NCBI RefSeq assembly: GCF_004010195.1
Contig: NC_057719.1
Location: 44,804,861 to 44,868,860 of the forward strand
DNA from: Chiloscyllium plagiosum
Taxonomy: Eukaryota
Direction of reading: 5' to 3'
DNA: 64,000 bases
The position numbers were made by a program, and so were the translations under genes. Below, in pieces: positions 6,903 to 59,675 of the stretch (position 1 is the first letter of the stretch; every line of letters starts with the position of its first letter). The notes under the pieces were generated by a model. The model saw only the letters and a program-made list of their open reading frames with translations. It did no database searches and was not told the origin of the DNA.

Positions 6903-7183
6903 CTGAAAATGTGTTGCTGGAAAAGCGCAGCAGGTCAGGCAGCATCCAAGGAGCAGGAGACTCGACGTTTCAGGCATGAGCCCTTCTTCAGGAATGAGGA
7001 AAGTGTGCCAAGTAGGTTAAGAGACCTTTTATCTTAACTTGCTTGGCACACTTTCCTCATTCCTGAAGAAGGGCTCATGCCTGAAACGTCGATTCTCCTG
7101 CTCCTTGGATGCTGCCTGACCTGCTGCGCTTTTCCAGCAACACATTTTCAGCTCTGATCTCCAGCATCTGCAGTCCTCACTTT
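6903..7183 (+). mobile_element. Penelope-like fold-back insertion (family A) forming a ~120-bp-arm hairpin
   Basis: Perfect 15-bp duplication CTCCATCATGATGTG (6888-6902 / 7184-7198). Arms 6902-7022 and 7032-7152 are reverse complements with about 3 mismatches. Confidence 0.9.
7057..7096 (+). ncRNA. Putative minimal type-I hammerhead ribozyme motif (mirror copy on the minus strand at 6964-6991)
   Basis: CTGAAGA-A-GGGC-TCAT-GCCT-GAAAC-GTC at 7063-7090: CUGANGA box, stem II, GAAA box, palindromic ACGU stem III and a GUC triplet. Stem I is weak in this copy. Confidence 0.65.
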
Positions 7184-7599
7184 CTCCATCATGATGTGAA
7201 ATGGTAACAAGGAAGCATTTTGTGGCCTGCACACTTTGCCTGTCTATTTGATTTAGGGTAATGCTGGCTCTCTTTAACTTTGCGGATCTTCTAAATCCCA
7301 TTGTCACCCACTTCTTGCCAATAGCCTGGCCATCTCGTTTGTGCCTGAAATAATAAAGACACACCTTTTGTTGTTTTAGCTTCCACTAGTACCTCCACAA
7401 CTCTATTTGCAAATTGAAGTTGCATCATCCTTTTCACGGCATCATTGAAGTGACTCCTTTAAACAGGACCTTCCACTTTTAAACGATGCTGTCAACTTCC
7501 AGAGGTGCAATATGTGTGATCCCCTCCTCAGGGTCTTATTGCTTTTTAAACCGCTTATTGAAAATGTCCCTGAAGCGTGTATGAAATTCAAGAAAGGAG

Positions 7600-9150
7600 G
7601 ATGGGAGGGATGGGGGTGTGGTTTTGAAGCTAACTACAGATCCAGAACCTTTACTGACTGACGGTTGAAGATTCTTTAGATATCTGCAGGGGAATATTTC
7701 ATTGTCTAGAAACGACGAGGAGCAAGCAGGCATATGCAAAGAAATAGGTGTTGCAAAACAACTTTTGGGGAGGAAAGTCCAAGTTAAAGGTCACGTAATT
7801 GTTGTAAAACACACTGGATTCCGCTCTCCGTTCATGACACTGCGAAGGCAAGCTCATTCTAAGTTCTTTGTACGTGTTTATATGAACACAGAAGTTGCTG
7901 CTCTGCCAGTGAAACTGGGCAGTAAATCGACAAAAAAATCTGAAAGCAAACCAAGGCTACTTAATGAAATATACCTGGGCGGGAGACAGAGCGGGTCATA
8001 ATTTATTGCCACATTAGAAAAGTAGTAAAGTAGGTTTCCCCACTTTTGTTGCCAAATTCTAACCTTGGCGTTCGCCACAAAAATAGGAAAATGATTTATA
8101 CCCCCCCCCCCCTCCATGGCAGCTCCAACACGCCTTTCAGATCGTGTGATCATCCTTTGGAGGAGTGTTCATATTACAGCCTTAGGGTGTAACATATACA
8201 AGTCTGTCTTTGTAACATGTTAGCAGATGGAGCTATTAAAGTTCAGCATAATGATTCGACGGAAATAGCCTTCATCTGATTTCTAAAGCTCGGGTGGAAA
8301 TAAAACTTATTTAAGCCAAATCATTTTTCTAAAAAAAAGGAATGTTTCTAATTCGGTACAACCAAGAACAAAAGGCAATAAATCAGGAACCCTGCCCCCA
8401 CCCGATTTGGTTGTGGAAAATATTCCGAGCTGGTCTGTGAGAGTATGTTAGTGTGAGATTGGTTTCAGAAGGCTGACAGTAAAGGTGCAGAGATGGCCGG
8501 CCCGGAATGAAATCCTTTCTCATGTACTGTACACATGAAAGCTCTGGCACACGAAGCCAGACAGGAGATGGCATGTTAGGGAGTGGAACATACCAACAGT
8601 ACAACCAACAGAGGGGAACACATCAGCAGGAGCTTGGAAAATGCACCAATGAGTTCACCCGGCACAAATGTATGCGGGACTCCGAGCAGGGGAAAGGAGG
8701 AGAAACCACACGATATGACTAGTCTTCGTGTCTTTCCTGAAAGTGTTTGAAAACACACGTGAGCAGCAGCTTCCCCCCGGTTCTGTCCAACATATGTCTA
8801 AACACACCCGTAGACCGCATGTGTTCTGTTCCTACTGGACTATCAAAGATGTGGCTGTGAAGTTTGCAGCAGCTCCTGTAACTGTTCCTTTCCTGAATTC
8901 AGTGACCGAATACCGAAAGTGCTGAGGAGGTGAGCTCCAATAATCAGTTCTTTTCCTGGCATCCAGCGGCGAGTACTTTTACTGAGGGGGAGTGAGCGCT
9001 TGTTTTACTTTGACTCTTCGCTTTCTGTTTTACTGTGGGCTTCATGGAGCTACTTTAATGTTACAGGGTGGTTAAAAGAAATCTTTGGGATATTGCTTAT
9101 ACAGTTGTAATCAGGCGGGGCGGGGCGGGGGAGAAGAGAAAGTTATTTAG
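7600..9150 (+). promoter_or_regulatory. Candidate FRMD6 promoter region
   Basis: Visibly CpG-richer than its flanks, with no recognisable repeat. Tandem GC boxes GGCGGGCGGGGCGGGGG (~9114-9131), E-box CACGTG (8756-8761), TEAD-type GGAATG at 8339-8344 and 8504-8509. It lies upstream of, and on the same strand as, the FRMD6 ATG exon, which begins with a splice acceptor. Confidence 0.5.
8730..8929 (+). other. FRMD6: Candidate non-coding first exon of FRMD6 (5' boundary is a guess)
   Basis: Good donor GAG|GTGAGC at 8929/8930 inside the CpG-richer region. No transcript evidence is available. Confidence 0.35.
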
Positions 9151-11622: not shown

Positions 11623-11721
11623 CATGACATGGACAGATGATGAAGGAGCGGCGCTCCAAAAGCTAGTGTGCTTCCAATTAAACCTGTTGGACTATAACCT
11701 GGTGTTGTGTGATTTTTAACT
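11623..11721. mobile_element. Minimal Penelope-like insertion (family B) with a decayed hammerhead core
   Basis: 13-bp TSD TTGTAATTATAGA (11610-11622 / 11722-11734). Core TGATGA-A-GGAGC-GGC-GCTCC-aAAAG-CTA. Same family as 59393-59675. Confidence 0.8.
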
Positions 11722-11865
11722 TTGTAATTATAGAGCACCTCTTATGTAGTAAATTATCGTAAGATGCTTGATGAGAGTGCATTCGAATTAAAATTTAACA
11801 TTAATATCACATGATTTCAAGACAGATGACCAAAAGCTTCAGTAATGAGACATGTTTTAAGGAGA

Positions 11866-12041
11866 GTTGCAAAGTGTGGTGCTGGAAAAGCACAGCAGGT
11901 CAGGCAACATCCGAGGAGCAGGAGAGTTGACATTTCAGGAATAAGCCTTTATCATTCTTGATGCTGCCTGACCTGTTGTGCTTTTCCAGCACCACACTTT
12001 ATGACTCTGATGTCCAACATCTGCAGTCCTCACTTCCCCCT
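11866..12041 (+). mobile_element. Penelope-like fold-back insertion (family A)
   Basis: Inverted arms AAAGTGTGGTGCTGGAAAAGCAC..CAGGTCAGGCA and TGCCTGACCTG..GTGCTTTTCCAGCACCACACTTT, then the CATCTGCAGTCCTCACTT tail. Degraded TSD ATGTTTTAAGGAGA / ATGTTCTAGAGAGA. Confidence 0.8.
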
Positions 12042-12779
12042 ATGTTCTAGAGAGAACCTGCCAGGATGACAGATCGACTAAGAAGTGCCAAGAGGGAATT
12101 CCACAAATTAAGATCTGGACAACTGAGGACTCTCAATGATGAATTGAATAAAATTAGGAATGTGCAAGAGGATAGAAATTGGAGGAGTGAAGATTTCTTG
12201 GCAAGTTGTGTTTCTGGAAGTAATTATAGAGATTGGGAAGAACCATGGGTAGATCTGAAATCTAGGACCAAATAAATTTAAGATTGAGTTATTTCTGAAG
12301 AGGGAGCCACTGTATGACAGTGACCAAAGGAGTGATAATTCAAAACAAATATTACTTGGGCAAATTTGTTTATGTAGAGGTGTTGTTGTGGTCCCAGCAT
12401 TGCATATACATTTTTCAAATGTGTGTCTTACAAGGTGAAGTTGTCAGTAGTCAATTCTAGGAAAGAGGGGTTATAGTTAAGAAGTTGGGGTTATTCTCCT
12501 TGGAATAAAGGTGATCTTGTAGTTGAGATTCTGTAGTGTTAAATCAAGATTATGACAAGGTAGACAAAGAAAAACTATCTTGGCACCTAATGGTACAAGG
12601 ATGAAGGGACTCGGGTTTCAGGTTTTGGCAGTGAGCTCACATGAACTCGATAGGATGAATGACATTCCTCAGTGCAGTCATGACTCTATGAAAGACTACT
12701 TCTGGCTTTTCTATTGTTCATTTTTTTTTAAACTATGGGAACACAAAATCCCATAAGAATTGGCTTTTTGATGCTTTAG

Positions 12780-12960: not shown

Positions 12961-13170
12961 AAGTCCCTGAGAAGGTGAGGATGTTATAAGCAGGGGCCCA
13001 TCCTGTTTAAAAGGTTGACATTGCTAGTGGGTGCAAAAGATTTACTTAAAATTTATGGATTTTAGAATTAGTAGTTCTGTTTGCATATTAGGATCATCTT
13101 TTATGGTTTTGATAGTTTTTGCGTAGCCAGTTGTTAGCAGACTGAGTCTCTGTAGCATTCCTCAAGTACT

Positions 13171-13287
13171 GCTTTTGCCCGAAACGTTGCTTTCGAAGCT
13201 CCTTGGATGCTGCCTGAACTGCTGTGCTCTTCCAGCACCACTAATCCAGAATCTGGTTTACAGCATCTGCAGTCATTGTTTTTACCT
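13171..13287 (+). mobile_element. 5'-truncated Penelope-like terminal repeat (family A, same subtype as 4671-4801)
   Basis: GCTTTTGCCCGAAACGTT...GGATGCTGCCTGAACTGCTGTGCTCTTCCAGCACCACTAATCCAGAATCTGGTTT.CAGCATCTGCAGTCATTGTTTTTACC. No clear TSD. Confidence 0.8.
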
Positions 13288-18076: not shown

Positions 18077-18651
18077 GGTCTGCTGCACGGTGGCTCAGTG
18101 GTTAGCAATGCTGCCTCCCAGTGCCAGGGACCGGTTCGATTCCATCCTTGGCCAACTGTCTGTGTGGAGTTTGTGCACACCTCCTCCGGGTGCTCCAGTT
18201 TCCTGCCACAGTCCAAAGATGTGCAGGTTAGGTGGATTGGCCATGCCAAATTGGCTGTAGTATCCAGGGGTGAGAGTCGAGTGTGTGGTGCTGGTAAAGC
18301 ACAGCAGGTCAGGCAGCATCCAAGGAGCAAGAGAATCAATGTTTCGGGCAAGAACCTTTCATCAGGAAATGATGGATTAAAATGCACCCTTTTCCTGATG
18401 AAGGGCTCTTGTCTGAAACGTTGATTCTCCTGCTTCTTGGATGCTGCCTGATCTGCCCTGCTTTTCCAGCAGCACGCTCTTGACTCTGATCTCCAGCATT
18501 TCAGTGCTCACTTTCTCCTAGTATCCAGAAGTATGCAGGCTGAGTAGATTAACAGGGTTACAGGGGTAAGCCGAGGTGGGATGCACTTTGGAGGGTCAAT
18601 GTGGACTCAATGGGTTGAATAGCCTGCTTCCACACTGGAGTGATTCTATGA
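18077..18651 (+). mobile_element. HE1-type V-SINE split by a Penelope-like insertion
   Basis: SINE head and V-domain at 18077-18267; the SINE resumes at 18529 and ends GATTCTATGA. Confidence 0.85.
18268..18518 (+). mobile_element. Penelope-like fold-back insertion (family A) inside the SINE
   Basis: TSD TAGTATCCAG (18258-18267 / 18519-18528), inverted arms, and core CTGATGA-A-GGGC-TCTT-GTCT-GAAAC-GTT at 18395-18422. Confidence 0.85.
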
Positions 18652-20258
18652 ACATCAGGTGATCCAGCCAGAATCTGGACTCAGAATTAACAATTTGCCA
18701 AGGGAATCAGCATCCTGGGTGGACCGAGAGTGTGGCAGCAGAACAGGTCATTTTTGTGGAATCCAGTGAACTGCTCGTGCCTCACTTGAGCCCACGCTCC
18801 CAAAACAAACACAGTACTTAACTATTTGACTGCACTTTGATAGGATTATTATACAGTAGAGCCAAAAAGTGTGGTGCTGGAAAAGCATAGCCAGCCAGGC
18901 AACATCCAAGGAGCAGGAGAGTCGACGTTTGGAGCATAAGCCCTTCATCAGGAATGAGGTGGTGGCCCAAGGGAGCTGAGAGTGGTGGGACTGTGGGCAC
19001 GGTTGCTGGGGATGCGATATGTAGATGGAGGTGGGGGTTGATGGTGATAAGTGGGAAAGAAGGTGGACAGGTTGGACAGTTCAAGAAGGCAGTGTCGAGT
19101 TGGCTCTGGGATAAGTAGGGAGAGGAGAAATGAAGAAACTGGTGAAATCTACAAGGCGGAAGATGAGGTGTTCTTCCTCTAGGCGTTGGGTGGCTAGAGT
19201 TTGGCGGTGGAGGAGGCCCGGACTTGCATGTCCTTGGCAAGGTGGGAGGGGGAGTTAGTGTTCGGCGACAGGGCAGTGGAGGAAGAACGCCTCATTTTCT
19301 GCCTTGACCCTTCAACCACATGGGATCAATGGTAGATTTCACGGTTTCTTCATTTCTCCTGCCCCCATCTTATCCCAGAGCCAACCTCCCAACTCAGCAC
19401 CACGCTCTTGAACTGTCCTACTTTCCACCTTCCTTTCCACCTATTCCCCTCCACCCACTTTTCCGACCTATCTTCATCACCCTATTACCTCCATCTAACT
19501 ATCGCATTCCCAGCTCTATCTTCCCCTCAGTCCCACCCCCTTCCCATTTATCTCTCAGCCCCCTTGGGCCACTCCCTCATTCCTGATGGAGAGCTTATGC
19601 TTGAAACTTCGACTCTCCTGCTCCTCTAATAGCTGACCAGCTGTGCTTTTCCAGTACTATATTTTTCGCTTCTGATCTAATCCAAGATGGAGGACAGGAA
19701 AAATTTCTGACTGTAACAGGCTGTTCGTTTTTTGAGGTATTTTAGGTATTGGAGGTGATTTCCTTGAATTCTGGGAGTAGCAATTACTGTTTTGGAAGCT
19801 GTTGCATTGGTTTGGAACTTTAGAGAAACAAGTAGTGAAAACAACAGCACTTTTAAAGGGAGAGGAATAGACAAAGGCAGCACATGGTAGGTCAGTGCAG
19901 GAGAAAGAGAGAAAGGAACCCACACTGCTAACTGAAACAACAATGAACCTGCTGCATCGCTGGATATTGGACCGTGTCTGGGAAAATTAACAAACAGTGA
20001 AATTCACAACTAATCTTGGAGGAACCTGTTTGGGAGAGATGACAGCACAGAAACAGATGAATATTTTTAGGTGGGGCCTTACAGAAAGTCTGCAGTAATG
20101 AGTAGAGTGGGTTCTTTCTTGATTGTGTTTTATTGAGATATGTCTCTTGATTAAACTTAAAAAATATAAACCATTAGTATTAAGTTAGCCTGGAGCAGTG
20201 TTTTATTGACGAATAAGACTGTGCTATTTTCTGGGTCTGCAGATTGGAAGAAACAAAA

Positions 20259-21321: not shown

Positions 21322-23890
21322 TTAAACTGCATTTACTTCAATGCAAGAGACCTAACAGGGAAGGCAGATGAGCTCAGGGCATGGTTAGGAACATGGGTCT
21401 GGGATATCATAGCAATTACAGAAATGTGGCTCAGGGATGGACAAGACTGGCAGCTTAATGTTCCAGGATATAAATGCTACAGGAAGGACAGAAAGGGAGG
21501 CAAGAGAGGAGGGGGAGTGGCGTTTTTGATAAGGGATAGTATTACAGCTGTACTGAGGGTACAGGGTATTAACTTTCCAAACCTAGATTGGAACTGCCAT
21601 AGTATTAAGGGTTTCGATAGAGAAGAATTTGTTAAATGTGTACAAAAAAATTTTCTGATTTAAATATGTGGATGTACCTATGAGAGAAGGTGCAAGACTT
21701 AATCTACTCTTGGGAAATAAGACAGGGCAAGTGATTGAGGTGTCAGTGGGGGAGCACTTTGGGGCCAGCGACCATAATTCTATTAGTTTTAAAATAGTGA
21801 TGGAAAAGGATAGACCAGATCTAAAAGTTAAAGTTCTAAATTTGAGGAAGGCTAATTGTGATGGTATTAGGCAAGAACTTTCAAAAGCTGAATGGGGGCA
21901 GATGTTCGCAGGTAAAGGGACGGCTGGAAAATGGGAAGCCTTCAGAAGTGAGACAGCAAGAGTCTAGAGACAATATAATCCTGTTAGGGTGAAAGGAAAG
22001 GCTGGTAGGTATAGGGAATGCTGGAAAGAAATTGAGAGTTTGGTTAAGAAAAAGAAGGAAGCATATGTAATGTATAGACAGGATAGATCGAGTGAATCCT
22101 TAGATGAGTGTAAAGGCAGTAGGAGTATACTTAAGAGGGAAATCAGGAGGGCAAAAAGGGGACATGAGATAGCTTTGGCAAATAGAATTAAGGAGAATCC
22201 AAAGGGTTTTTACAAATACATTAAGGACAAAAGGGTAACTAGGGAGAGAATAGGGCCCCCTCATAGATCAGCAATGCAGCCTTTGTGTGGAACCACAGGA
22301 GATGGGGGAGATACTAAATGAGTATTTTAGATCAGTATTTACTGTGGAAAAGGACATGGAAGATATAGGTTGTGGGGAAATAGATGGTAACATCTTGAAA
22401 AATGTTGATATTACAGAGGAGGAAGAGCTAGATGTCTTGAAACGCATAAAAGTGGATAAATCCCCACGACCTGATCAGGTGTACCCTAGAACTCTGTGGG
22501 GAGCTAAGAAAATGATTGTTGGGCCTCTTGCTGAGATATTTGTATTATCGATAGTCACAGGCGATGTACCGGAAGACTGGAGGTTCGCTAACATGGTGCC
22601 ACTGTTTAGGAAGGGTGGTAAGGACAAGCCAGGGGACTGTAGTCCAGTGAGCCTGACGTCGGTGGTGGGCAAGTTGTTGGAGGGAATCCTGAGGGACAGG
22701 ATGTACATGTATTTGGAAAGGCAAGGACTGATTAGGGATAATCAGCTTGGCTTTGTGCATGCAAAATCATGTCTCACAAATTTGATTGAGTTTTTTGAGG
22801 AAGTAACAAAGAGGATTGATGAGGGCAGAGCAGTAGATGTCATCTATATGGACTTCAGTAAAGCGTTCGACAAGGTTCCCCATGGGAGACTGATTAGCAA
22901 GGTTAGATCTCATGGAATACAGGGAGAACTAGCTATTTGGATACAGAACTGGCTCAAAGGTAGAAGACAGAGGGTGGTGGTGGATAGATGTTTTTCAGAT
23001 TGGAGGCCTGTGACCAGTGGAGTGCCATTAAGGACCACTACTTTTCATCATTTATATAAATGATTTGGATGTAAGCATAATAGGTACAGTTAGTAAGTTT
23101 GCAGATGACACCAAAATTGGAGATGTAGTGGACAGCGAAGAAGGTTACCTCTGATTACAATGGGATCTTGTGTAGATAGGCCAATAGGCTGAGTAGTGGC
23201 AGATGGAGTTTAATTTAGATAAATGCAAGTTGCTGCATTTTGGGAAAGCAAATCTTAACAGGACTAATACACTTATTGGTAAGGTCCTAGGGAGTGTTGT
23301 TGAACAAAGATACCTTGGAGTGAAGGTTCATAGTTCCTTGAAAGTGGAGTCGCAGGTCGATAGGATAGTGAAGAAGGCGTTTGGTATGCTTTCCTTTATT
23401 GGTCAGAGTATTGAGTACAAGAGTTGGGAGGTCATGTTGCGGCTGTACAGGATATTGGTTTGGCCATTTTTAGAATATTGTGTGGAGTTCTGGTCTCCTT
23501 CCTATCGGAAGGATGTTGTGAAACTTCAAAGGGTTCAGAAAAGATTTACAAGGATGTTGCCAGGGTTGGAGGGTCTGAGCTATCGGGAGAGGTTGAGTAG
23601 GCTGGGGCTGTTTTCCCTGGAGCCTCTGAGGCTGAAGGGTGACCTTTATAGAGGTTTATAAAATCATGAGGGGCATGGATAGGATAAATAGACAAAGTCT
23701 TTTCCCTGGGGTGGTGGAGTCCAGAACTAGAGGTTTAGGGTGAGAGGGGCAAGATATAAAAGAGACCTAAGGGGCAACTTTATCATGCAGATGGTGGTAC
23801 GTGTATGGAATGAGCTGGCAGAGGAAGTGGTGGAGGCTGGTTACAATTGCAACATTTAAAAGGCATCTGGATGGGTTTCTGAATAGGAAG
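21322..23890 (+). pseudogene. CR1 ORF2: AP-endonuclease plus reverse transcriptase; frameshifted, with an internal endonuclease deletion near 21560
   Basis: LNCIYFNAR..GKADEL, IAITEMWL, RGGGVA, SDHNSISF, PVSLTSVVGKLLE, YMDFSKAFDKVPHGRL, KFADDTK, FNLDKC, LEYCVEFWSP (ORF-track pieces 21424-23661). Confidence 0.92.
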
Positions 23891-29120: not shown

Positions 29121-31539
29121 AATGAGCCTGGAAACTCCAAATGAAAAACCATATGGTGCAGGATATAATAATGAAGCAAATCCTATTGGCTGGTTTGTGT
29201 TTGAGGTATTGGCCTTAAGATGACCTTAGTCTGATGTATCTCATTATCAATGTCATTTACTGGGGACACTTCTGAGGCCAATAGCAGTGAAACTATTACT
29301 TATTTTCCTGATGTTTTTTATTAAAATTGTAATTTGATCAGGGAAGATTTTTATATGTGCCTGTATAAGGGGAAGCAGAATTCAGTTCACAAGTAAAAGA
29401 AATGAGGAATGGAAAAATAAATTGTAATTCCTCTCTTGTTGGGCAATACTGCTCTGATTAGTCTAGGAATCTTAAACTGGCCGAGAAATTTGTGTTTATA
29501 ACTTGATGCAACTTACCATTCTTGAGAATCTCTAAGCTACAATTAATATTTGCCATGTTATACTTGAGAACTGTTCGTGATGCTACCAATTGAATGCAAA
29601 GAGAATAAATGATGGTATTTCTCAACTCCATCATACATTGCATGAATGTGCACACCATTCAGCCACAAAGGGGAAAGAAAATCTCCCATTCAAGGTCAAA
29701 GTTCATATCATTGTTGTTGAGCCATATCTGTAGGAAGATCTACAGTCTCTTTGCTGAGTTGAAGTTCTTTATTTTTAAATCAGTAGTTATAGAAAGTCAT
29801 TTCTGCCTAACATGGGGCATATTAGTGAGATTATTGCAGTAGTACACAGATTGCTTTTGCAAATTTACAATCAATGGGATTAGTACAACCAAAGTCGTAC
29901 TTCATGATTGACCATTTCCAGCTTTCTGGCAGCAATATCATAGCTTTGTCCATGCTATAGTAGAGATAAGTTCTCAGGCAGGTAGCAAAAAGAGACCCTA
30001 AATTATTTCAGATGCAGCACAGGTCAAACTCAAATGATTCTGTGCCTTGGCACCTGCCAGCAATTTAATGTGCAATGCTGTTTTCAGCTTTAACTGAGCA
30101 AGGCCACTTTAACAATCTCTGTTAAAGTTTTCAGCTCATTTATTATCATTCTCTGAGGTTAAAACATGCTCAAGAAAATTATGTACTGAGCTGTTATAAA
30201 TGCAGCAATCAGCTCGACATCACTAGGTTTCATCTAATTTGTACACAGCTGTTCAAAAATGCTTTCTTGTCTACTTTTCCTTTCTTTCATGCAGTAATAA
30301 TAGCTTCCACATGACCGAACGTCTCATCTGCAAAGTCCAAATATGTCAGTTTGAAGCTTAGGGTGGGAAGAATTTGGTGCTTAGTTTGGTAACAGTCTAT
30401 TTAAACAGTGTAGTGGTGGGAGGGGAGGTGGGGCAGGCTTATTTGAGATTAGTTTGAAGGACAGATTGAGATGAAAGGGTGGTTCCCATGTGACTTGCTT
30501 TTTTTTGTCATCGCTGTTCTTGTCATCAGGCACATGCTGTTAATTGATCAAAGAGTCCTTTGTGAATTCTGTTCTGAGATCTTTGACATGATCAGTGTGT
30601 ATGAAATAACGTGAACAGTTAGATTGTAAATGGGGTCCTCTGCTTTTGAGGAGTTGCTCTGTATTACCTAGCTAACTCGCATGGCTGGTATGTTTGAGTG
30701 CTACCAATACTTGAATCTCTGACAGTAAGCACATTTCCTCTGGCCACAAAGCAGCGAATTTCATGGAACAACACAAAATGTGGCATTGTTTTCTCCTAAT
30801 AGCTGGTTCTGTGAAAATTAAACTACTATATGGATGCACCTTTTCAAGATTTACAGCAAAGGTGTCTGAAATTGTTTTTACTTTAAATTGTTTCTTCAAG
30901 TACTATATGCCCCGAATGATCTTTACTAGGGAAAATTATTGAGATGTTAGTTATTAATTGTCTCACACTGAAAAGGATTCACTTCACACTTTGTCAATAG
31001 CATTGAGTTCCACTTATTTTCTATTTTTAAGCTGTGGCTTTGTTCCTCCAAATCTATTTTTTTGCAGTAATTTCATTAAGTCATTGGGTGGGTTTACCAA
31101 TGTCAGTTTGCATTAGGTCAGTCTTAATTAGGTGTTTTCTTTAGTTACTTCTTACAGAAATACTTACCATAATTAAATGTTCTGATTAGATAAACACTCT
31201 ACTCAAAATAATTTTTCCATAATTAGACATTTTTTTAGCTGCAAGACTTACCTTTATTAAATAATTACTTTTATAGGAATCAATGGGTAGATTTTGATTT
31301 TATATTGTGAGATCATGTAAAATGGGTAAGAGCAAATTGTCAGCTTTCCCCTTACGATTTTTATTTCCTTTTGACTCCAAAAATCTACTCCAAAATGCCT
31401 TTCTGAAGTGAAATATAATATTGCGAATATCAATAAGAATGCATTGACATCAATAATCCGTATTTGCCGTGTTGAGGTAGGAACTTGTGGGATTATTGGA
31501 GGTCTGTAATTCATGACCAGATCTATTTCTGTTCTTTTA

Positions 31540-31640
31540 AATCAAAGTAGGAAATACTGAAAGTATTTAGTGGTTCAGACAGGATCCATGGAGAGAAGCA
31601 GTGTTAATGTTTCAAGTCATTGACCTTTCGTCAAGAATGT
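31540..31640 (-). mobile_element. Penelope-like terminal-repeat fragment (family C) with a decayed hammerhead core
   Basis: The minus strand of 31603-31638 reads ATTC-TTGACGA-A-AGGTC-AAT-GACTT-GAAAC-ATT-AAC. Related fragments lie at 24125-24210, 52570-52630, 56070-56170 and 57017-57203. Confidence 0.6.
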
Positions 31641-36820: not shown

Positions 36821-37138
36821 GGTTAGCACTGCTGCCTCACAGCACCAGAGACCCGGGTTCAATTCCCATCTCGGGCGACTCTCTGTGTGGAGTTTGCACA
36901 TTCTCCCCCTGTCTGCGTGGGTTTCCTCCGGGTGCTCTGGTTTCCTCCCACAATCCAAAAATGTGCAGGTTAGGTGAATTGGCCATGCTAAATTGCCCGT
37001 AGTGTTAGGTGAAAGGGTAAATGTAGGTGAATGGGTCTGGGGTGGGTTGCGCTTCGGCGGGTCGGTGTGGACTTGTTGGGCCGAAGGGCCTGTTTCCACA
37101 CTGTAAGTAATCTAATCTAATCTAAATAATCTAATCTA
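36821..37138 (+). mobile_element. Young HE1-type V-SINE with (TAATC)n tail
   Basis: Intact A-box-like TGGCATAGTGG and B-box-like GGTTCAATTCC; many CpGs retained. Confidence 0.92.
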
Positions 37139-39950: not shown

Positions 39951-39985
39951 TGTCCCCAGTATGGAATAAGAAGAAAATAAACCAT

Positions 39986-40300
39986 GGGGTGGCACGGTGG
40001 CATAGTGGTTAGCACCGCTGCCTCACAGCACCAGGGTCCCAGGTTCAATTCCAGCCTCGGACGACTGTCTGTGTGGAGTTTGCACATCCTCCCCGTGTCT
40101 GCATGGGTTTCCTCCGGGTGTCCGGTTTCCTCCCACAGTCCAAAGATGTGCCAGCCAGGTGAATTTGCCATGCTAAATTGCCCGTAGTGTTAGGTGCATT
40201 AGTCAGAGGGAAATGGGTCTGGGTGGGTTACTCTTTGGAGGGTTGGTGTGGACTGATTGAGCCAAAGGGTCAGTTTCCACACTGTACGGAATCTAATCTA
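39986..40300 (+). mobile_element. HE1-type V-SINE
   Basis: Same head, V-domain and ATCTAATCTA tail as 36821-37138. Confidence 0.9.
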
Positions 40301-43300
40301 ATTTCGATGATGATAATGGGTATAATAAAAATTTGTTATCCATGTGTTTTGAGAAGTGTGGGATTTTTAAATGTAGTATCCCTTTAAGAGTAAGTTGGAC
40401 TGGAGAGCATTTTGAAAGGAAACCAATTGCATTCCATAATTTGGTTCCAAAAAATCCCCTCGTGTTACCAATGGGATGAACAGCTAAAAAAACAAAGGAT
40501 AAATACAAAATGAATTGTAGTGGTGAGAGGTTACAACATATAGAATTTGTATACAGAGGAAACAAGAAAATTTCTCTAAATGACACCCAGGTTTCTCTTT
40601 GCTAGTTTTCGACCAGAACCTAGTGTTGTGGCAGGGCCCTGAAAATAGGGGAGACTGTGTTATTGTGTGCTTTGTACTTGGAGCAGACAGAATACTGAAG
40701 GCAGAAACGGTGCGAGATTATGGATAGGATAAGACTTGTTACAGCTGCCAGAGCCTACCAAAGTTTTTAAAGGGGTTAGAGAAGGATGTCTTGTAGTGAT
40801 TCTGTGTCATCTGGGCTGTCACAACCCGAGATGAGGAAGATTTGTAGATGTTTGCTTTTGTCAATGCTCACTGTGTTTGGGACCCTTGAATGAAATATGG
40901 GTGCTGGGCAATGTGGTTTAAGTGTTGAAACATTTGGTTACATAGTATGAGACCCTACAAAATTGAGGTAAAAATATTGTATTTACGTATTTGTAAAAAG
41001 CAGAATAGTGTTTATCGTTGTGAATGATGTTTCATAAAGTGAATGACTAATTAACAATGTGAAATGACAAACACGGTTGGAAAGCGGTGTCCTGAAGTAC
41101 ATTAGTTGAAAAGAAAGATCACTTGCCCAACATTTATTTATCAGCAGTGTTTTCTGTTTTTGTATTTGTAAAATCTAGCACTGTAATGATTCGTTTAAAA
41201 AAATACTTCTCTGTTAGCAATTGGCATTTATTAGAAATGTCAAATCTTCACTCAAACCTTTTTTTACAAAGCAAATTTTCAATACAGTGGCTGGATATCT
41301 TGGTATGCATTAATAAAGTTGAGTTAAATACAGGCTTAATCTCTGTTCCATAAAATGTGAGACTTAAAAATAAATGCATTGTGGAATTTTACTGTAGTTA
41401 TATGCATGCACACCGAAATATGTTTATGGATATGGAAGTGCTGCAATGACCACCATTCAATAGTAAAATTTCAAATAACAGCCTATCAATATCTGGGTAG
41501 GCCTTGAAATAGACCATCCTGCCATCATAGAGGATTCAGCATCCTATATGCTGGCATAACATTGTTTATGGCACTGGAAACTGTATTCACGGCATGATTT
41601 GTCAAACTTATTTGGACTGTAATCCCTTCTATTATTTAACATCACTCCTCCAAAGTTTATTTCAATAAACCTCCATTAGTTTAAGGCAGTGCATCTCCTG
41701 GTAATGAAGTTTAATTTAATGAATGAAGTGATGGCCCATTTTACTATAATGAAGAAAATCTCAAAATTCTAAACTGGAAAAACTATTTGAAATGGTTTAA
41801 AAGCCCTGTGTTTTTAGAAGAACGTTTTGATACATAAAAGAAAGCTACCATAGAAGTTGTATTATCAGTTTGTAAATCAGCAAGTTAATGATTTTGAATT
41901 TCAACAAGAACACTAGTGTGTTTTTTTGTAATATTTACATAAGCAGGGCTGTTCCATTATTACTCTATTACTATACAGAATTAACTTGTAATGTTGATAA
42001 GGATTTTTGAATTTCATTTCTAAGTAGTAATTTAAAAGATTATTGCTAAAAGAACAGTGAAACTTTTAATAAAAGGTACATAGTTCTAAACAAGACTAGT
42101 TGCAGACTGCTAGATTGGTTGCATGAAACCAGGCTATTTGGTTGTTAAATTGTAAAATGGGAAGCTTATGTATCCACTCTTTTTTTCTCCTGTTGAAAAA
42201 ACGGTTTTATAATTGCATGAAAAACCACAACTAAATATATGTTCAAGTATAAACATTGCTGCCATGTTTATCTTCAGTGACGTTCATTCTCATCAGTTTT
42301 GTTTTGTGAAGTTTAGTAAACATTACAAATAAGCGACTAGAAGTTGGAGTTTTTCCTCTTTTACTCATCAGAACGAGGACTCAAATGCCAAACAAAAATG
42401 TTAAATTTCCAGTCATCTTTCAATAACATTGTGAAACATACACGATCTCAAATGTGCAAAATTGTTTTTGTTTTGGGTGTGCCTTTTGCTGTCTAATCTC
42501 CAAGCTCTAGAATTCCTTTCCTTTATTCTCATGACTTTTCACCCCTATTCCTTTTGAGCTTCAATCACTGAAGACCTAATTTTGACCTAAAAATTGAAGA
42601 ACTAATTTTGACCATTTTTTTTAGTCACCCATCTGAATACGACCTTCTTTGGCTCTGTATCAGTTTTTTTGTCTGAGGACCCTCCTGTGAAACACCCTTC
42701 AGGTTGCCTGTATTAAGTGTAAACTTTTTAATCTTATAAGTAGTAACCATGGGCAGAATTTTGTGCATATTGATTGAAGTATGGTCATAGATGTTAAAGC
42801 CAGCAGAATGCCCCTATCCTGTCACCACCTGAATGTAAAGCCTGCAGAACCTTGTACCTATCATGCACCAAAGTGGTCACTCAGTGGGCTTTCTGCTGGA
42901 AATGCTTCCCAATGCTGCCATCTCTTGCCTAACCTGAAGCTGTTGGCATGGTAAGCTGAAATTTCAGGAGCAGTGGGCATGGGAGTTATCTGTTTGAGAG
43001 AGATCACGTTGGGGAAGGTGGTCAGAAACCCCTGAACACATCCCTGCCCCAGTCAACCCAGATTGGGGTTCCTATTCCCTTATCCTGGTGGGCGAGTCCA
43101 TCATGCCAGTTGGTCATATTGCCCCTTGGGAACAGGTTTAATCATAGTTATCTGAAGAGGCCCTTGACTCATCACTGATCACACAAACATTTCAATTGGT
43201 GCCAGGGTGGGATAGCCTTTCCTGTGCCAACACCACATTAAAGAACTCTCTAATGCCCACCTGCCTGACTGTCGTCCTCCCACTGCCATGTTCCCCACCT

Positions 43301-46822: not shown

Positions 46823-46967
46823 GCAGAAGAACATAAGGGGCCGAATGGCTTATATCTTAAGTCTGCTCACCGTTCCATAAGATCATGGTGATCGGCCTCA
46901 AACCTCAACTCCTCTTGTTCCAGTTCAGCAAAGCTCACAACTCCCCAATATTTCAAAAATCTATGTT

Positions 46968-51454: not shown

Positions 51455-52195
51455 GAAGCTTGACAAAGCAGCCCAATGATTGGTGCCACATCCACAAACA
51501 CTCACCTGCTCCACTGCCAACACTCAGTAGCAGCAGGTATACGAATAACAAGATGCACTGCAGAAATTCACCAAGGCTTCTTAGAAAGCACCTCCCCAAA
51601 CCCACGACCACTTCCATCTAGAAGAACAAAGGCAACAAATAATTGGGATCACCACTCTCTGCAGATTTCCATTCAAGCCGCTCCACATCCTTACTTGGAA
51701 ATATATTGCTGTTCCTTCAATTTTGCTGGATCCGGTGGCACAGTGGTTAGCACTGCTGCCTCAGAGTGCCAGAGACCCGGGTTCAATTCCTGCCTCAGGC
51801 AACTGTCTGTGTGGAGTTTGCACGTTCTCCCCGTGTCTGCGTGGGTTTCCTCCGGGTGCTCTGGTTTCCTCCCACAGTCCAAAAATGTGCAGGTTAAGTA
51901 AATTGGCCATGCTAAATTGTCCATAGTGTTAGGTGAAGGGTTACATGTAGGAGAATAGGTCTGGGTGGGTTGCTCTTCGGAGGGTCAGTGTGGACTTGTT
52001 GGGCTGAAGGGCCTGTTTCCAAATTGTAAGTAATCTAATCTAATCTTAAGAAAAACCCTGGAATTTCCTCCCTAATGACATTGAAGGTATACATAGCGGC
52101 TGCAATGGTTCGAGAAGGCAGCTTGCCATCACCCTCTCAAGAGCATTCAAGGATGGACAATGTGTGCTGGCCCAGCCAACAATGTCTGCATCTTG
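51455..52195 (+). mobile_element. Non-LTR retrotransposon 3' end (CR1/L2 group) split by a SINE
   Basis: The host reads GTTCCTTCA..GCTGGATC | AAAACCCTGGAATTTCCTCCCTAA across the SINE. It ends GAAGGCAGCT..CCATCACC.TCTCAAG..GCTGGCCCAGCCA. Confidence 0.7.
51733..52046 (+). mobile_element. HE1-type V-SINE with (TAATC)n tail
   Basis: Close match to 36821-37138. Confidence 0.92.
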
Positions 52196-53734
52196 TCACT
52201 GATTCAGAAACATAATTTGACACTGTATCTTCCAATCTCTGTGATCTGGCATGTTCTTCAGGCTAAGCCCCGCTGTGCTTCCAGTTTTCTGGAATTGTAC
52301 TGACTGTATTCCCTAAAAGAACTGCTTTCCATCTCATGTTTATGTTGCACAATGCTTTTTAAACATGTTTAGACACTCTTGTGCTAACCCTCCCCCAAGA
52401 TCTGATTAAAATCAATGGTCTGGAAGGGACCTGCTCCTGAGGCTGCTGGATGATGGAGGTACAACCTGTAATAGGGATGTGTCTTGTAACCCATAACCCA
52501 GCTTTGCAAGTTGTACCAGGCAGATGTAATGACCTCTTTTTATCGAAGCAAGGAAATTCACTTATAAATAAAACCAAAAATGGTGGAAACACTCAGCAAG
52601 TCAGGCAGCATCTTTGAGAGTGAAACTGAATAAGCAGCCTGAAACCTGTGCTTCTAATTGTGGTGAATGTGGAGGAGTACTGAAGTAAGGATATGTAAAC
52701 ATCCCTGCCCTCCCAGCTTCCCTATGAAGCACCTTTTCTCTCCAGCATGGTATTGCAATTTGATGATGTTATCCCTTTTAACATAAAGAATTAGGATATG
52801 GGTAACCTGCTATTGAAAGATCTAACAGATACTCACTGATGTATCCTGGGGTTACGTACGCAGGCACATCTATGCCTTGGCTAACTATCAGTTATAAAGA
52901 GTAGATGCTTCTACCAGCCTGTCATTCTTCAAGTGAACTAAATTAAGATGGAATCTGAGACCTTTATGCCCTTGGTTGCATGCTGTGATACAGTGATGAT
53001 ATCCATCTGTTAAAAATATACTGACATAGTTTCTATGTTACATCTCAGTTACTATGATATGGCTTATGGAGAGTTTTAGAGGTTATTGCAAAGTTCCACA
53101 TGAAAACCTCTAAATTGAATTGAATCTATGCGAATTTGAGACTGATCGAGTTGCTGGTGAAAATAGGAAAGTAGCAGAAACAAGTGATGTAAGAACCGAT
53201 TTTTCAAAATAATTTAGATGGATTATGCAATTAGGCAAATAACAATTGAAAAGCTAACTGAAAATATTACACATAACTCAAGAAAATAGGTATCACTAAG
53301 TGGTAACTCAAGCTGAACGTGGAGATTAGGAATATTATTCCCAGGAGTGTCAGAGAAATGGCAAAGTCATTTAAAAAGCTAATGAAATGATGAGAACAGT
53401 GAATTAAAAGTTCATGGCCTTATAGATGAAGTTTTGCAATGGATTTGTTAGACAGTTCGAGGATTGTGTTTAGTTTTGGTAAGACTATCACCAATAAAAA
53501 AAGACATGTATTTGAAACTGTGCGCTATAAGGGTAGGTAGAAGCCCTTCTGTATCTCTTCCCTTGAAGCTAATCAGCTGATTATACAACCGTATCCCTGG
53601 TAATTATAGGAGCATCTGTAAAGACCACATTTTTTTTATTTCTGGACTATGGATTAGAAAGTAAACTACTACTTTAAATAAAGGATACTGTGGAAAGAGG
53701 TAGTTGCAGTTTTAAAAATCCTGGAGTGCATGGT

Positions 53735-54393
53735 GAGTTATAGAGTCACAGAGTAGTACAGTATGAAAACAGACCCTTGTCCAACTTGTCCATGCCAACC
53801 AGATATCTTAATTTAATCTAGGGCCACTTCCCAGCACTTGGCTCATATCCCTCTAAACTCTTCCTATTAATGTGCCCATCCAGGTGTCTTATAATTGTTG
53901 TAATGTACCACGCTCCATCAGTTCCTCTGGTAGCTCGTTCCATACATGCACTATCCTCTGTATGAAACAGTTGCCCCTCAGATCCCTTATAAATCTTTCC
54001 CTTCAAACCTATGCCCTCTGTACATGCCCCTACACAGGGAAAAGAAAACCTTGGCTATGTCCTTTATCTATGCCCCTCATGATTTTATAAACCTCTATAA
54101 AGTCACTCCACTGCCTTCAATGCTGCAGGGAAAATAGCCGAAGCTTATTCACCCTCTCCCTATAGCTCAAATCCTCCAACCCTGGCAACATCCTTTGTGA
54201 ATCTTTTCTGAACTCTTTCAAGTTTAACAGTGTCTTTCATATATGAGGGAGACCAGAATTGAACATCGTATTCCAAAAGTGCCCCAACTAACATCCTATA
54301 TAGCTGCAAGATGACATCCCAACTCCTATACCCAGTACACTGACCAATAAAGGCAAGTCTATCAAATACTTTCTTCACTACCCTGTCTACCTG
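53735..54393 (-). mobile_element. 5'-truncated CR1 3' end (antisense)
   Basis: Minus-strand FIGQC..YRSWDV.LQLYRMLV..LLEY.VQFWSPSY.KD.VKLERVQKRFT; reverse complement of 23355-24014. Confidence 0.9.
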
Positions 54394-55574
54394 TTGTATG
54401 CAATCATGTCTTTTCCTGGAATAGTGAGAGTGAAAGCAGACAGAATGGAGTTGATAGGTTCTGACCTAAGGGACAACTATCTGACAACTTTGACTCTTGA
54501 TTGTGTCTATGGCATGTGTGGGGAGAGTGCAGCAGAAACCTCTATCTTTTTGTCTCTCTATGTATATTATATATATTGTATATGATATATGTGTAATATG
54601 TATCTAAGCTTTCTTTCTAAATTGCTCTTTCTGCAAATCATCTGCTGAAGGAGGAATAAAGAGCCTTAGAGATGTTGAAAGGATACCTTCTCAGCCAAAA
54701 ATGAAAGACTGAAGATTAGTGTGAGACAACCCCGTGACGATGTTAAACAATTGAAATGAAGTGAAAGAAAACCACTCATTGAATTCTGTGGCCCAGACTG
54801 GTGCTATTGAACTGTTACCTTGATTTTGTTTTCTCTCTTTAAACTCTTTATCCATGTCGTGTTGTCTTTGTGTATTTGCCTGCTTGAGAGCGGGGGGATT
54901 TAAGAAGAGGTAGTTTAAGTGATAGTTATAAGTTAGTAATATCTTTTGCCTTAGGATAAAGACAATTCATTTGCAATGAACAGTTATTAAATGCACAAAT
55001 CTGGTGCGCATATTATTTAACGCAAATTAGACTAGGGTTGGACAATTTAGTGCATTATTCAAATTTTCACATTTGTAGTGACTCGAACAGTAGGGCTTGA
55101 TTTTGCAGTACACTCTTCAGTGAGTCATGAATACTAAGTCATGTCTTAAAATGAAAGCAGAAGTTCACAGCCAAAGTTCATTGCATGTGGCCAAATGGGA
55201 TATCAATGTAAGTGATTGCTTGCAGAGGATATTCATAGTCACTGCACAGCATAATATAATGAACATATTTTTAACATCATTGTGTTTCAGTCTTTCAATT
55301 AGCCACCACTCATTTACGTACTAGATCTCTCATCCTATTTTTTAAATTTTCTACCTTTTATTCACTCTCCTTTCCAAAATTGTCCTCAAAATCAACTTCT
55401 TGCTGTGTTTCTGGCTACCTGTCCAGCACTAATTGTTGAATATATTGAAGGTGAGAGGCACTGCATTAAGATGTTGTGGGAAACAAAAAGTGTGTAGGGT
55501 GTGAGGAGTTCCTGTGTACAGCTTAATACAATTGTAAATGTGTCCTTTATGAACAATTTATTAATTTGTGGATG

Positions 55575-55800
55575 TTGGTTAGCTCAGCTGTTGAAAGGCT
55601 GATTTGTGATGCAGATTGTTGCCAGTCGCCCATGTTTAATTCCCGCACTGGCTGACGTCACGAAGAAGGCTCCACCTTCTCAACTTGCCCTTTGCCCATA
55701 ACACTGTGACCCTCTGCTTAAACTCAGCACCACCATCTCTCTCTAATGAGAGAGCAGTCCTTTTGTCTTTTGAGACTATGGCAACTTTACTTACTTTATT
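55575..55800 (+). mobile_element. tRNA-derived SINE of a second family
   Basis: A-box-like TAGCTCAGCTG, B-box-like GTTTAATTCC, and tail ACTTTACTTACTTTA. Confidence 0.55.
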
Positions 55801-57016
55801 GATGTTGTTACTTGTAGTACATAAGGGAAAATTGCCCAAGCCTTTCCAATTAAAGTACAGGTAATGAAATCTTCTGCCCATGCAAGTGAATAGGCGGACA
55901 TTGTGGACTGTTGAGAAAATAAATTGAAAGGCATAGCTTTTGTAGAGGTTTTACACCAACACCATGCTTGCCAAATAATGTGACTATGCTTGTGAATTGC
56001 TTTCTGTCTTGAGCTGCTGACACTAACTGATCTCAGTATTCAGATTTAGGATATTCATCAATGAAATGATAACACAAAAACAGAAATAGCTGGAGGAACT
56101 CAGCACGTCTGACAGCATTTTTGGAAAGAAAGCAGAGTCAACAGTTTGGGTCCAGTGACCCTTCTAGATACTAAAAATACTTGCTCTGAACCTCAGAAAA
56201 GACCGAACAACAGTTTAAATCTATAAGCATCAACTGTGCTGAGAATTTTGATTTGTGCTTAAATGCTGTAACTGTGGAATGGTTTGTACCAGCCTGAGAC
56301 CTGGGCCATAAATAATAAATGTTATGATAGAGCTCCAAGCAATTGTGGCTGTTTGCTTGAGCTTGTTGATTGGTGAGTGTGGAAGACTGTCCAAGCTTTG
56401 GGGAGCTAGGTGTCAGGTCTGGGAGTGGGAAGGCAATTCAGAGGGTCTTTGAAAATGTTGGACTTTTTTGTGGACTCAGAAGGAGCCTGTCTACTTTTCT
56501 GGACACTTTAAAATTCCTATTTTTGTTATTTTCATGTTCTCTTGTAAGGTAACTGAATGGGCAGCACAACCAGGAGTGTTAACTCTCAACATATTCCAGG
56601 AGATCAGACAGAAGTGATGCTAGGGAAATCTGGCTTTGTGACATAAGTGGGTGAATCTAGAGAAAAATGGGCTAGGAAACATGTGGAAAGGTTAAGCTTG
56701 AGTTAAGGTAGAGGGGGAACATATCTAGCACAGGCTGGTTGAGTTGAATGATTGATTGAACCTGAATTTATGGAATTCCACAACTGTGTCTGAATAATTC
56801 CTTCTCCTGTCAGTTGTTCTTGGGGCGTGGAAATCCACAATGCACCATATTCCAACTGGTTAAATCCAAGAGTAATTATAGCATTTAAGAACACTAATTA
56901 ATCATTTTGCCAGCAACCAACCAGTCTCAACTGAGCCTAGATTTGACTCATTATCAGCACTCTTTCCTCCAGCTCTGCAGCCTGACTAAACATTGCCTCA
57001 ACTGGTGGAGCACTGA

Positions 57017-57203
57017 ATAAAAACCGTAGGAACTGTAAATGCTGTAAATCAGAAATAAAAACAGAAATTGCTGGAAAATCTCAGCAGGTCTGGCAGCATC
57101 TGTGGAGAGAGATGTTTCAGGTTGAGTGACCCTTTCTCAGTGCCTGAATTCCTTAATACTGTCAGACCTGCTGAGCTTTCTCAATACATTTTATTTTTAT
57201 TTA
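57017..57203 (-). mobile_element. Penelope-like fold-back insertion (family C)
   Basis: 14-bp TSD TGGTGGAGCACTGA (57003-57016) / TGGTAGAGCACTGA (57204-57217). Inverted arms CTCAGCAGGTCTG / CAGACCTGCTGAG. Confidence 0.8.
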
Positions 57204-59392
57204 TGGTAGAGCACTGATCCTGTCATCTGTCGGCTATTTTTGATATTTCCATAAAGTCATATCCACTGACTCCAACCTGGGCTCTTCCATTGGCAGCGAA
57301 GCAGTTCCTGACATAGGGAAGGTCAGATGATACCTGAACGCAAGCAGGAATTGGTTGACTGGAAAGTCAGGTGGTACCTGGTGGCTAGTCATAGCTGCCA
57401 TTGCTGGGAGCTGAGCCTGCTCCTGGAATGTATTGCTTGGCTTCTCTGAGATCAAGGCCAATCTGGAAGATTCTCAGCCATTCTGGGAGGCACAGAATAT
57501 GCTATAGTTTGCAAGCCAAAACCTCATTGTCATAGGGTAGGCAATTGCTAGTGCTGCTCTGAGCATATTTACACATGTTGTACTCAGCTGAAAATGCTGC
57601 TGAAATGGTCAAAATCATGAAACTAAGTGAAAGATTAAATAGATGTGAGGTTTAACTGAAATATTACGGCAGTGAAATCTCTGCATAAAGCAATGATTTC
57701 CCAATTTGCAGTTTCCACCTGAACTAGTTGGAAGTGGTTGAGCCAGTCCTATTATCAGTTGTTGTCTTTCCTAACTTAGATCATGAAATGAGATTGCAGT
57801 GTATGGAATAATGCTGCTCTATGAGTCAGTTACATTGTGAGTCAGTCGAGATTTTGCATGCTAAAATAAATACACAGATGGTCACCTTTTGAAAATGATA
57901 ATTAGAAATGAAAGAACAGTTTGACCATCATATGTTATTGCAAATTGCGAGCATTATGAATTTTGTGAAAAATCACTATTTCCTTCAGCCTACAAAAGAA
58001 TTTGCAAATTCAGTAAAGTCAATTGCTTTAACATGATAAATTAATGTTTCCTCTTGTGCTATCAGTGGATAGCTTCCCAACAGTTTCCCACAACATCATC
58101 ATGAAACATTTTAAAAGGAATATGAAGACTATAACAAACTGTTGCTTAGTTATCTCTAACTTATGATTCATAACCATTACTGATATATTTTGAGAAGTTG
58201 TTAAAATTACATAATTGTCAGTCTTATGATCAGATTAGCAGGTTAGAAGAATCTTATTTCAGGAATTTTTAAAACCTTGCTGAATTCCACTGAAATAAGT
58301 GCTACCAATTGTTTGGTTTGTTGTTTTGGTAGAAGCTGTGATAGAGTTTTGCTTTCTGATGTTTGGGTAACTATATCTTAACTTTTGTAAAACTGAAAAA
58401 AACAGATCGTAAAATCATCCAGTACAGAAGAGGCCCTTTGGCCAATTGAGTCTGATCTGGCAAAAACCTACTGTAAATCAGTAGGGCTTACCTTCCAGCA
58501 CTTGGTGTACTGCCTTGAGCATTCTGACAATTCAAGTATTCACCCAAGTACTTATTAAAGGTTATGAGGTTTCCCACCTTAGATATCCTCCCAGTCTGTG
58601 CATTCCACATTCACACCACCCTCTGGGTGAAAATCTTTCCTCCAATTCCCTCTTAAACCTTCTACCCTTCACCTTTTAAAATTGTGTTCATTATTGACCC
58701 TCAACAAAGATAAAGATAAAGAGCTACTTTCTATTCATCCTGTCAATGCCCCTCATAATCTTGTGTACCACCATTAGTTCCTCGCTCAGTCTCTGTTCAA
58801 AACTACCTTAACTTATCCAATCACATCCTTCCTATAATGTGCTGGTCAGAATTGCACACAATGCTCCAGCTGTAGTCTAAATAAAGTCCTGAACAGCTCC
58901 AACATAATCTCCCTACTTTTATAATCTATGCCATGACTGACCAGGGCAACTACCCAGTATGCGTTCTGAGCTACCCTATAAACCAGACCTGCTGCCTTCA
59001 ATGATACGTGCGCAAGCATCCCAACATGTCCCTGTTCCTCTGAGATTCTTAATACCATGCCATTCATTGAGTGCTCTCTTATCTTGTTATTTCTTCCAAA
59101 GTGCACCACCGTACATTTATCAGGGTTAAATTTCATCTGCCACTGATCTGTTTATCTGACCAATCTGTTTATATATTCTTGTAGCTGTTAACCATCCAGC
59201 CAATTTTTGTGTCATCCGCAAATGTACTTATCATCACCAACACCCAATGGCCACCACCACATTTTCTTCTGTATCATTAATGGATATCGCAAACAATAAG
59301 AGACCCAGGACTGATCCCTGTGGTACGCTAGTGGACACCGCCTCACACACACAAAACCAACTACCACCGCCCTTTGTCTCCTACCACTAAGT

Positions 59393-59675
59393 TAAAAATC
59401 ACACAACACCAGGTTACAGTAAGGGCCTGTGCCCGAAACGTCGAATCTCCTGTACCCTGGATGCTGCCTGACCTGCTGTGCTGTTCCAGCAATAAAGTTT
59501 CAACTTTGATCTCCAGCATCTGCAGACCTCACTTTCTCCAGGTTACAGTCCAACAGGTTTATTTGAAAGAACAAGCTTTCAGAGCACTGCTCCTTCATCA
59601 GCAACCTGATATAACCTGGTGTTATGTGGTTTTTAACTTTGTCCACCTCAGTCCAACACCGGCACCTCCACAGCA
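59393..59675 (+). mobile_element. Penelope-like fold-back insertion (family B) inside CR1
   Basis: 14-bp TSD TCCTACCACTAAGT (59379-59392) / TCCTACCGCAAAGT (59676-59689). The minus strand of 59573-59601 reads CTGATGA-A-GGAGC-AGT-GCTCT-GAAAG-CTT. Confidence 0.85.
59421..59537 (+). mobile_element. Family A Penelope-like insertion nested in the family B insertion
   Basis: Perfect 12-bp TSD CCAGGTTACAGT (59409-59420 / 59538-59549). Begins AAGGGCCTGTGCCCGAAACGTCGAATC. Confidence 0.9.

Follow-up and report, generated by a model that had tools for sequence, protein, structure and literature searches.

The stretch analysed here (the window) covers 64,000 nt of the shark Chiloscyllium plagiosum, forward strand, at positions 44,804,861-44,868,860 of NC_057719.1 (assembly GCF_004010195.1); all positions below are relative to the window. 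A crude exon scan of the window revealed no convincing host exon. The window does carry many short repeats, some with the core of a minimal type I hammerhead ribozyme. These repeats are very probably 5'-truncated, mostly decayed insertions of two endonuclease-positive lineages of Penelope-like elements (PLEs), namely A (with an older relative, C) and B. Their terminal repeat holds a hammerhead that likely works only in the source RNA, either as a dimer or with the help of protein. A preliminary description of this DNA had placed minimal type I hammerhead motifs in Penelope-like terminal repeats, and PLE open reading frames (ORFs) upstream of A and B bear this out. It had also listed seven motif strings as hammerhead cores. 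All seven strings are present where they had been reported, but only four cores are intact (7063+, 6991-, 18395+ and 59601-) and three are broken (59421, 11638 and 31606). The insertions concerned are as follows.

6888..6902, no strand: left target-site duplication of up to 15 bp including microhomology; right copy at 7184-7198.
6902..7022, minus strand: family A inverted arm of the same insertion as 7024..7187, no tail; intact core at 6964-6991, stem I of 4 bp.
7024..7187, plus strand: family A direct arm, starting 39 nt before C3 and ending with a PLE tail of about 35 nt.
7063..7090, plus strand: family A core, intact; stem II with one G.U, stem III ACGU, C17, stem I of 2 bp.
11638..11726, plus strand: family B copy truncated at +1; C3 and G12 lost (core 11638-11665); 13-bp duplication at 11610 and 11722.
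18283..18368, minus strand: inverted arm of the insertion at 18.3 kb; 10-bp duplication at 18258 and 18519.
18392..18520, plus strand: family A copy from 3 nt before C3; core 18395-18422 intact, with a weak stem II (two G.U).
31539..31634, minus strand: family C copy, an old decayed relative of A; core 31606-31634 defective, with U3 opposite G8 and a non-palindromic stem III, ACAU.
59421..59539, plus strand: family A copy truncated at +6, without CUGANGA, inside a family B copy; 10-12 bp duplication (59409, 59538).
59538..59601, minus strand: family B copy, core 59573-59601 intact, stem I of 0 bp; its 3' end resumes at 59392-59420 past the A insertion.
59610..59664, plus strand: inverted, tail-bearing arm of the family B insertion at 59538..59601.

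Positions within the motif follow the established hammerhead numbering. The core at 6964-6991 had been taken for a mirror of 7063-7090; it is indeed an intact inverted core, but it is the inverted arm of the same insertion, and the pair at 6.9 kb represents a single head-to-head insertion. A stem I of 2-4 bp had been reported for the genomic copies. This holds for 7063-7090 (2 bp) and 6964-6991 (4 bp) but not for 59573-59601 (0 bp), where stem I is missing because the 5' side is an inversion junction. Target duplications of 10-15 bp flank window insertions at several sites, and three tested sites have none longer than 7 bp.

The abundance of the motif was determined with a strict minimal type I descriptor, as the preliminary description had proposed. 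It consists of CUGANGA, a stem II of at least 3 bp, GAAA, a loop-less stem III and U-H, with stem I not required. In the window it matches the four intact cores and nothing else, while 30 first-order Markov resamples gave 0.03 matches on average. Outside the window, 54 genomic stretches (517,945 bases; 6 adjoining the window and 48 picked by round coordinates) gave 36 matches, against 0 in each of 8 resamples. All 114 stretches chosen by position gave 71 matches in 1,089,075 bases, or about 65 per Mb, which extrapolates to a genome total of about 230,000 strict motifs. Searches of the whole genome with exact patterns located 69,589 intact motifs of type A and 14,223 of type B (0 with reversed-pattern controls), or at least 83,812 for A and B together; C is left without a count, as a narrow exact pattern for intact C matched 1 copy. 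An Rfam scan of the window at E<=5 returned no hammerhead family and three weak unrelated matches, which is not evidence against the motifs, the minimal form being caught by none of the curated models. A weak match to sR30 at 55568-55641 (30.3 bits; gathering score 38) is probably due to chance.

Minimal hammerheads in the pseudo-long terminal repeats (pseudo-LTRs) of PLEs were defined as a class in 2014 (Cervera and de la Pena, PMC4209133). The class was reported from fishes, coelacanth, lamprey, Xenopus and reptiles, with no activity as monomers and low activity as dimers. The shark motifs belong to it, and are here very abundant and mostly decayed. Both are type I, with a loop-less helix III, a palindromic 15.2-16.2, an extra base between 9 and 10.1, a G10.1-C11.1 pair, a short helix I and a location in PLE terminal repeats. 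Both also occur mostly as single or opposite-strand copies of truncated elements, in many co-existing families (PMC4209133). The shark motifs lie at the short end of the class, with 4-5 bp in helix II and 2-4 bp in helix I, and their number of at least 83,812 compares with about 4,000 in coelacanth and about 9,000 in Xenopus (PMC4209133). Sharks were not found in the two supplement files of that paper that were searched. A literature search joining shark, elasmobranch or Chiloscyllium with Penelope or hammerhead found no description of these families, Repbase, Dfam, subscription papers and the supplements of a 2026 preprint on retrozymes (bioRxiv 10.64898/2026.07.22.740005) lying outside the search. 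Because the class is already known, the finding mainly extends it to this shark genome and to a very high copy number. Its main use is as material, in that the young junctions, which number many thousands and have a sharp 5' boundary, allow cut and uncut templates to be counted.

The hammerhead fold was compared across 12 natural copies, hand-picked as intact representatives. The catalytic columns (CUGANGA, GAAA and U-H) are invariant and stand in type I order. In these copies 93.8% of cells are paired, against 22-45% in slid controls, and 7 of 8 pairs show two-sided changes, although the picking of intact motifs and the relatedness of the 12 copies inflate this score. Helix I shows two-sided changes in all three of its pairs (86% of cells paired); its first pair varies between C-G, U-A and A-U, and thus covaries though the descriptor did not require stem I. 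The earlier claim that the core boxes stay fixed while the stems change and still pair is therefore upheld, with stems I, II and III covarying across lineages. So is the claim of a palindromic, loop-less stem III with ACGU or AGCU, the commonest forms being ACGU in A, C and D and AGCU in B. The extra base after A9 and the closing pair G10.1-C11.1 were seen in all types; CpG decay has often turned the pair into G.U, and one C copy has A.U.

Conservation among copies gives a different picture. Recruitment by the 3' flank alone yielded 77 copies of the A lineage, 64 of them with a collinear core region; in family B, indels left only 3 recruited copies for this purpose. The match to the commonest letter among the 64 copies is 0.88 in core columns and 0.90 in flank columns, both figures being touched by truncation and by subfamily mixing. 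The preliminary description had named excess conservation of the core over its flank as a test, and family A does not show it. The test is unsuited to copies that are dead on arrival, and selection is visible only between source lineages. An intact core is kept in 21 of the 64 copies, and transitions have removed G12 in 8 and the stem III CpG in 22. The catalytic G12 and the stem III palindrome of family A both lie within CpG dinucleotides, so ordinary CpG decay quickly inactivates copies. With a core that decays as fast as its flanks, the scattered copies look dead. The pattern is that of dead copies from selected sources, and points to selection on the hammerhead fold between lineages and not among copies.

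It is highly unlikely that the dispersed copies are themselves active ribozymes that shape host transcripts. Strict motifs are dense, and motif-bearing reads do occur in an RNA run. However, the decay of the core looks neutral, the loss of G12 (8 of 64) proceeding through CpG, the copies are solo or inverted, and the RNA reads fall about equally on both strands. For a transcript spanning the pair at 6.9 kb, folding predicts an extended duplex (-250 kcal/mol) in which both motifs would be sequestered.

The parents of the copies can be recognised from their longer relatives. The closest genomic relatives of family A have a fixed 3' end and variable 5' ends. In longer copies the sequence continues into an ORF that encodes a reverse transcriptase (RT) of the YIDD kind, followed by a CX4CxxC linker and a GIY-YIG nuclease of the CCHH type. 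A 649-aa frame at locus L126 falls narrowly short of the Pfam curated cut-offs in its matches to RVT_1 (E 2.5e-6) and to GIY-YIG (E 3e-4), and the best named homologues of its protein are unannotated carpet-shark proteins (82% and 71% identity). Among 30 loci selected by the nuclease alone, 19 carry the A motif downstream on the same strand. A copies end near +90 or near +125, and the two sites, about 35 nt apart, correspond to an optional PLE tail. Some copies pass through this tail into a common ORF start about 160 nt after C3. The A motif region thus serves both as 3' end and as 5' leader, which makes it a pseudo-LTR. The assembled unit reads motif, tail, ORF start, RT, CX4CxxC linker, GIY-YIG nuclease, 3' untranslated region (UTR) and second motif.

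In family B a second nuclease ORF is followed by a 3' UTR that is longer and rich in CA. At locus L213 a 304-aa frame of thumb, linker and nuclease, 29% identical to the A protein, has the B motif downstream, and RT pieces of the family were found at L189 and L204. The CX4CxxC linker and the CCHH nuclease motifs can be read directly in both A and B frames. Family C had been proposed as a third family beside A and B. Its motifs are real, but only two lineages (A with C, and B) can be told apart, as C aligns with A over its entire 3' flank and therefore represents the same lineage. The C query is matched at 73-93% by 30 loci, the window copy itself excepted, and PLE ORF remnants lie upstream in the right orientation in 3 of these 30; the case for a place in PLE terminal repeats is thus weaker for C than for A and B. 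The alignment identifies C as an old branch of the A lineage, not an independent family.

Further features of the parent elements were observed along the way. In young A subfamilies loop II contains an ATG, from which an upstream frame of 26 codons opens (7076-7157 on the plus strand of the window; L249:1510-1570); other A subfamilies have not retained this ATG. The A tail finishes in a pyrimidine tract and AG just ahead of the ORF start. An intron ending at the tail was considered and rejected, as no donor was seen by eye and no such joint occurred among 15 of 56 RNA-read joints. Open frames of 842, 923 and 1,212 aa, at first candidates for long PLE ORFs, proved to be runs of N. Elsewhere in the genome, and absent from the window, is a fourth type of minimal hammerhead, whose stem II region spans 18 nt and whose extra base is U (L154:9133 minus, L145:2788 plus, L147:4757 minus, L224:6896 minus). 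The L154 copy has, immediately upstream of its motif, a GIY-YIG remnant that is built differently. This suggests that the fourth type marks a third PLE lineage, possibly Poseidon.

A and B resemble the endonuclease-positive Neptune or Nematis PLEs (Craig et al., 2021, PMC8557442) in their C-terminal GIY-YIG nuclease with CCHH and in their linker (CX2-5CxxC in the published elements). They also resemble Neptune and Nematis PLEs in 5' truncation, an adjacent inverted copy, an optional tail and a pseudo-LTR hammerhead (PMC8557442). The likeness is one of linker, nuclease and copy anatomy. Penelope and Poseidon differ from A and B in lacking the CX4CxxC linker.

The preliminary description had further suggested non-autonomous, retrozyme-like units. 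The short copies would then be separate elements, excised by tandem hammerheads, circularised and spread through circular RNA. Very many short motif-bearing copies exist, and retrozymes derived from PLE terminal repeats are present in one chondrichthyan genome (bioRxiv 10.64898/2026.07.22.740005). Shark copies and non-LTR retrozymes also have the type I hammerhead, the short units and the PLE origin in common (PMC7229834; bioRxiv 10.64898/2026.07.22.740005). Retrozymes, however, form head-to-tail tandem arrays, are expressed as circles and typically carry canonical motifs (same sources), whereas the shark copies are dispersed, solo or inverted, with target duplications. The window holds no tandem motif arrays, same-strand pairs within 1 kb number just 2 among 52 intact cores, and the short copies have sequence and 3' ends in common with the ORF-bearing copies. 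With PLE tails, inverted arms and 10-15 bp target-site duplications on solo or head-to-head copies, the retrozyme proposal is largely refuted for the window and is very improbable overall. The 5' ends of the copies, described next, speak against it as well.

The 5' ends were measured relative to C3 in 112 A copies recruited by positions +48..+84. They fall at -10..+9 in 57 copies, at -59..-11 in 6, further upstream in 16, at +10..+27 in 9 and at +28..+47 in 24. Divergence from the reference copies can mimic a 5' end, but of the 40 copies with an inverted partner at the junction 26 begin within the same 20 nt (-10..+9). The peak thus lies at the upstream edge of the motif and precedes the predicted cut, at +28, by about 30 nt. 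No more than 4 of the 112 start at the cut itself, two of them being internal duplications, which is not what excision by tandem hammerheads would leave. Family B behaves similarly, with 19 of 41 copies beginning at -12..+4 and 12 of 30 tail-picked copies at -9..+11. Among 18 A copies (from 30 loci) that continue into the ORF start, the 5' end never lies further upstream than -33, and in 7 it falls at -8..+8. A second peak at the cut site had been hinted at in small samples, but it did not survive, with 4 of 112 A copies at +28 and no excess in the 41 B copies. From 5' ends at the upstream edge of the motif rather than at the cut, we infer that reverse transcription usually copies RNA that has not been cut, and that this edge marks either the 5' end of that RNA or a strong stop.

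The pile-up might instead reflect mere stalling or template switching of RT at the stem II hairpin or nearby palindromes, with no relation to the transcript start. This is a possible though doubtful explanation. An inverted partner stands at the junction in 40 of the 112 A copies, and longer copies exist (16 of 112 beyond -60). Against it, copies that continue into the ORF start stop there too (0 of 18 beyond -33), and in both lineages, whose stems differ, the peak is found upstream of stem II.

A related system is PAc, a Poseidon element of Anolis carolinensis (Frangieh et al., 2024, PMC11167929), in which internal initiation of reverse transcription defines the tail. Its cleavage is assisted by protein, and catalytic mutants leave insertion unaffected. 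In A/B as in PAc the motif closely precedes the ORF start, 3' ends occur at two sites with a tail of 30-40 nt between them, the long 3' end lies about 120 nt from the motif, and there are copies that include the uncut motif (PMC11167929). They differ in the linker, which Poseidon lacks, and in the ORF start, which lies at stem II in PAc but about 160 nt after C3 in A.

These findings are compatible with the following course of events. The element protein would nick DNA and start reverse transcription within the RNA, some 90 or 125 nt downstream of the motif. Reverse transcription would proceed on uncut RNA and halt near the upstream edge of the motif, which is likely near the RNA 5' end. Internal initiation combined with such a stop would yield a mass of copies of 100-135 bp. 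The fold would be kept by selection on source elements only, with the window copies as passengers. We tentatively propose, at somewhat short of even chances, that hundreds of thousands of repeats of 100-135 bp, similar to short interspersed elements (SINEs), derive from autonomous Penelope RNA primed internally near its 5' end, and that their 5' ends record the start of uncut RNA at the upstream edge of the ribozyme. If so, the genome would amount to a large in vivo record in favour of the in vitro model, in which the hammerhead is not cut while insertion takes place, and counts of junctions could serve to test what the hammerhead does. Of the present findings, only the 5'-end pattern has some further value, and it bears on the role of the hammerhead in Penelope elements.

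The fold could also be conserved for a role that does not involve cleavage, such as protein binding, an RT stop or an internal promoter, with family A perhaps catalytically near-dead. Stem I is 2 bp in the most abundant A subfamily, 5' ends halt at the motif edge and not at the cut, catalytic mutants of the anole element still insert (PMC11167929), and 8 of 9 Xenopus dimers showed no cleavage (bioRxiv 10.64898/2026.07.22.740005). Nevertheless, all catalytic positions are invariant across lineages with changed stems, as selection on catalysis predicts, and the anole motif does cleave with protein (PMC11167929). A role without cleavage is thus considered unlikely, and the motif is predicted to self-cut no more than weakly, as a dimer or with protein help.

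Several observations, beside the inflated covariation score mentioned above, weigh against descent from PLE sources with a working hammerhead and an uncut template. The commonest A subfamily has a stem I of 2 bp followed by a U.U mismatch, compared with the 4-5 bp described for the class. The hammerhead dimer was never the best predicted dimer in the 9 copies folded; it was weaker than the best by 5-10 kcal/mol in three reference copies and by 14 in a fourth. A single-cell polyA RNA run labelled as a related species gave 2,700 reads with no pile-up of starts or ends, this library being weak for cleavage. The near-equal division of these reads between the strands fits passenger transcription; of three other sequencing runs, one had no matching reads and two consisted of contigs. 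Finally, the analysis found no full element that has a terminal repeat at each end and an ORF without breaks, the long copies being interrupted by runs of N. Such runs, of 0.3-2.7 kb, occur in many long young PLE copies (L121-L126, L215-L223), and full-length elements are thus under-assembled or masked.

The window also contains further copies of the A lineage and of type C.

4683..4789, no strand: A-lineage copy with a short inverted tail arm; 15-bp duplication at 4656 and 4802.
11863..12042, no strand: A-lineage arms, a head-to-head pair, both truncated inside or past the core.
13156..13274, plus strand: A-lineage copy, core lost.
18866..19218, minus strand: longer family A copy with a remnant of the endonuclease C-terminus, the 3' UTR and then a decayed core near 18950.
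19277..19678, plus strand: older A-lineage copy, 3' UTR and decayed core.
56076..56164, minus strand: C-type decayed copy.
57039-57112 and 52566-52626: further C-type decayed copies.

Other repeats are also present. An abundant repeat of about 330 bp with a tRNA-like head, which we take to resemble the shark HE1/V-SINE type, lies at 409-737, 18082-18650, 34836-35097, 36369-36559, 36803-37131, 39989-40312 and 51727-52054. RT fragments of the long interspersed element (LINE) type, presumably CR1/L2-like, were found at 23048-23551, 26384-27077, 54099-54393 and about 58700-59385. The B and A copies at 59.4-59.7 kb sit within a LINE-type fragment.

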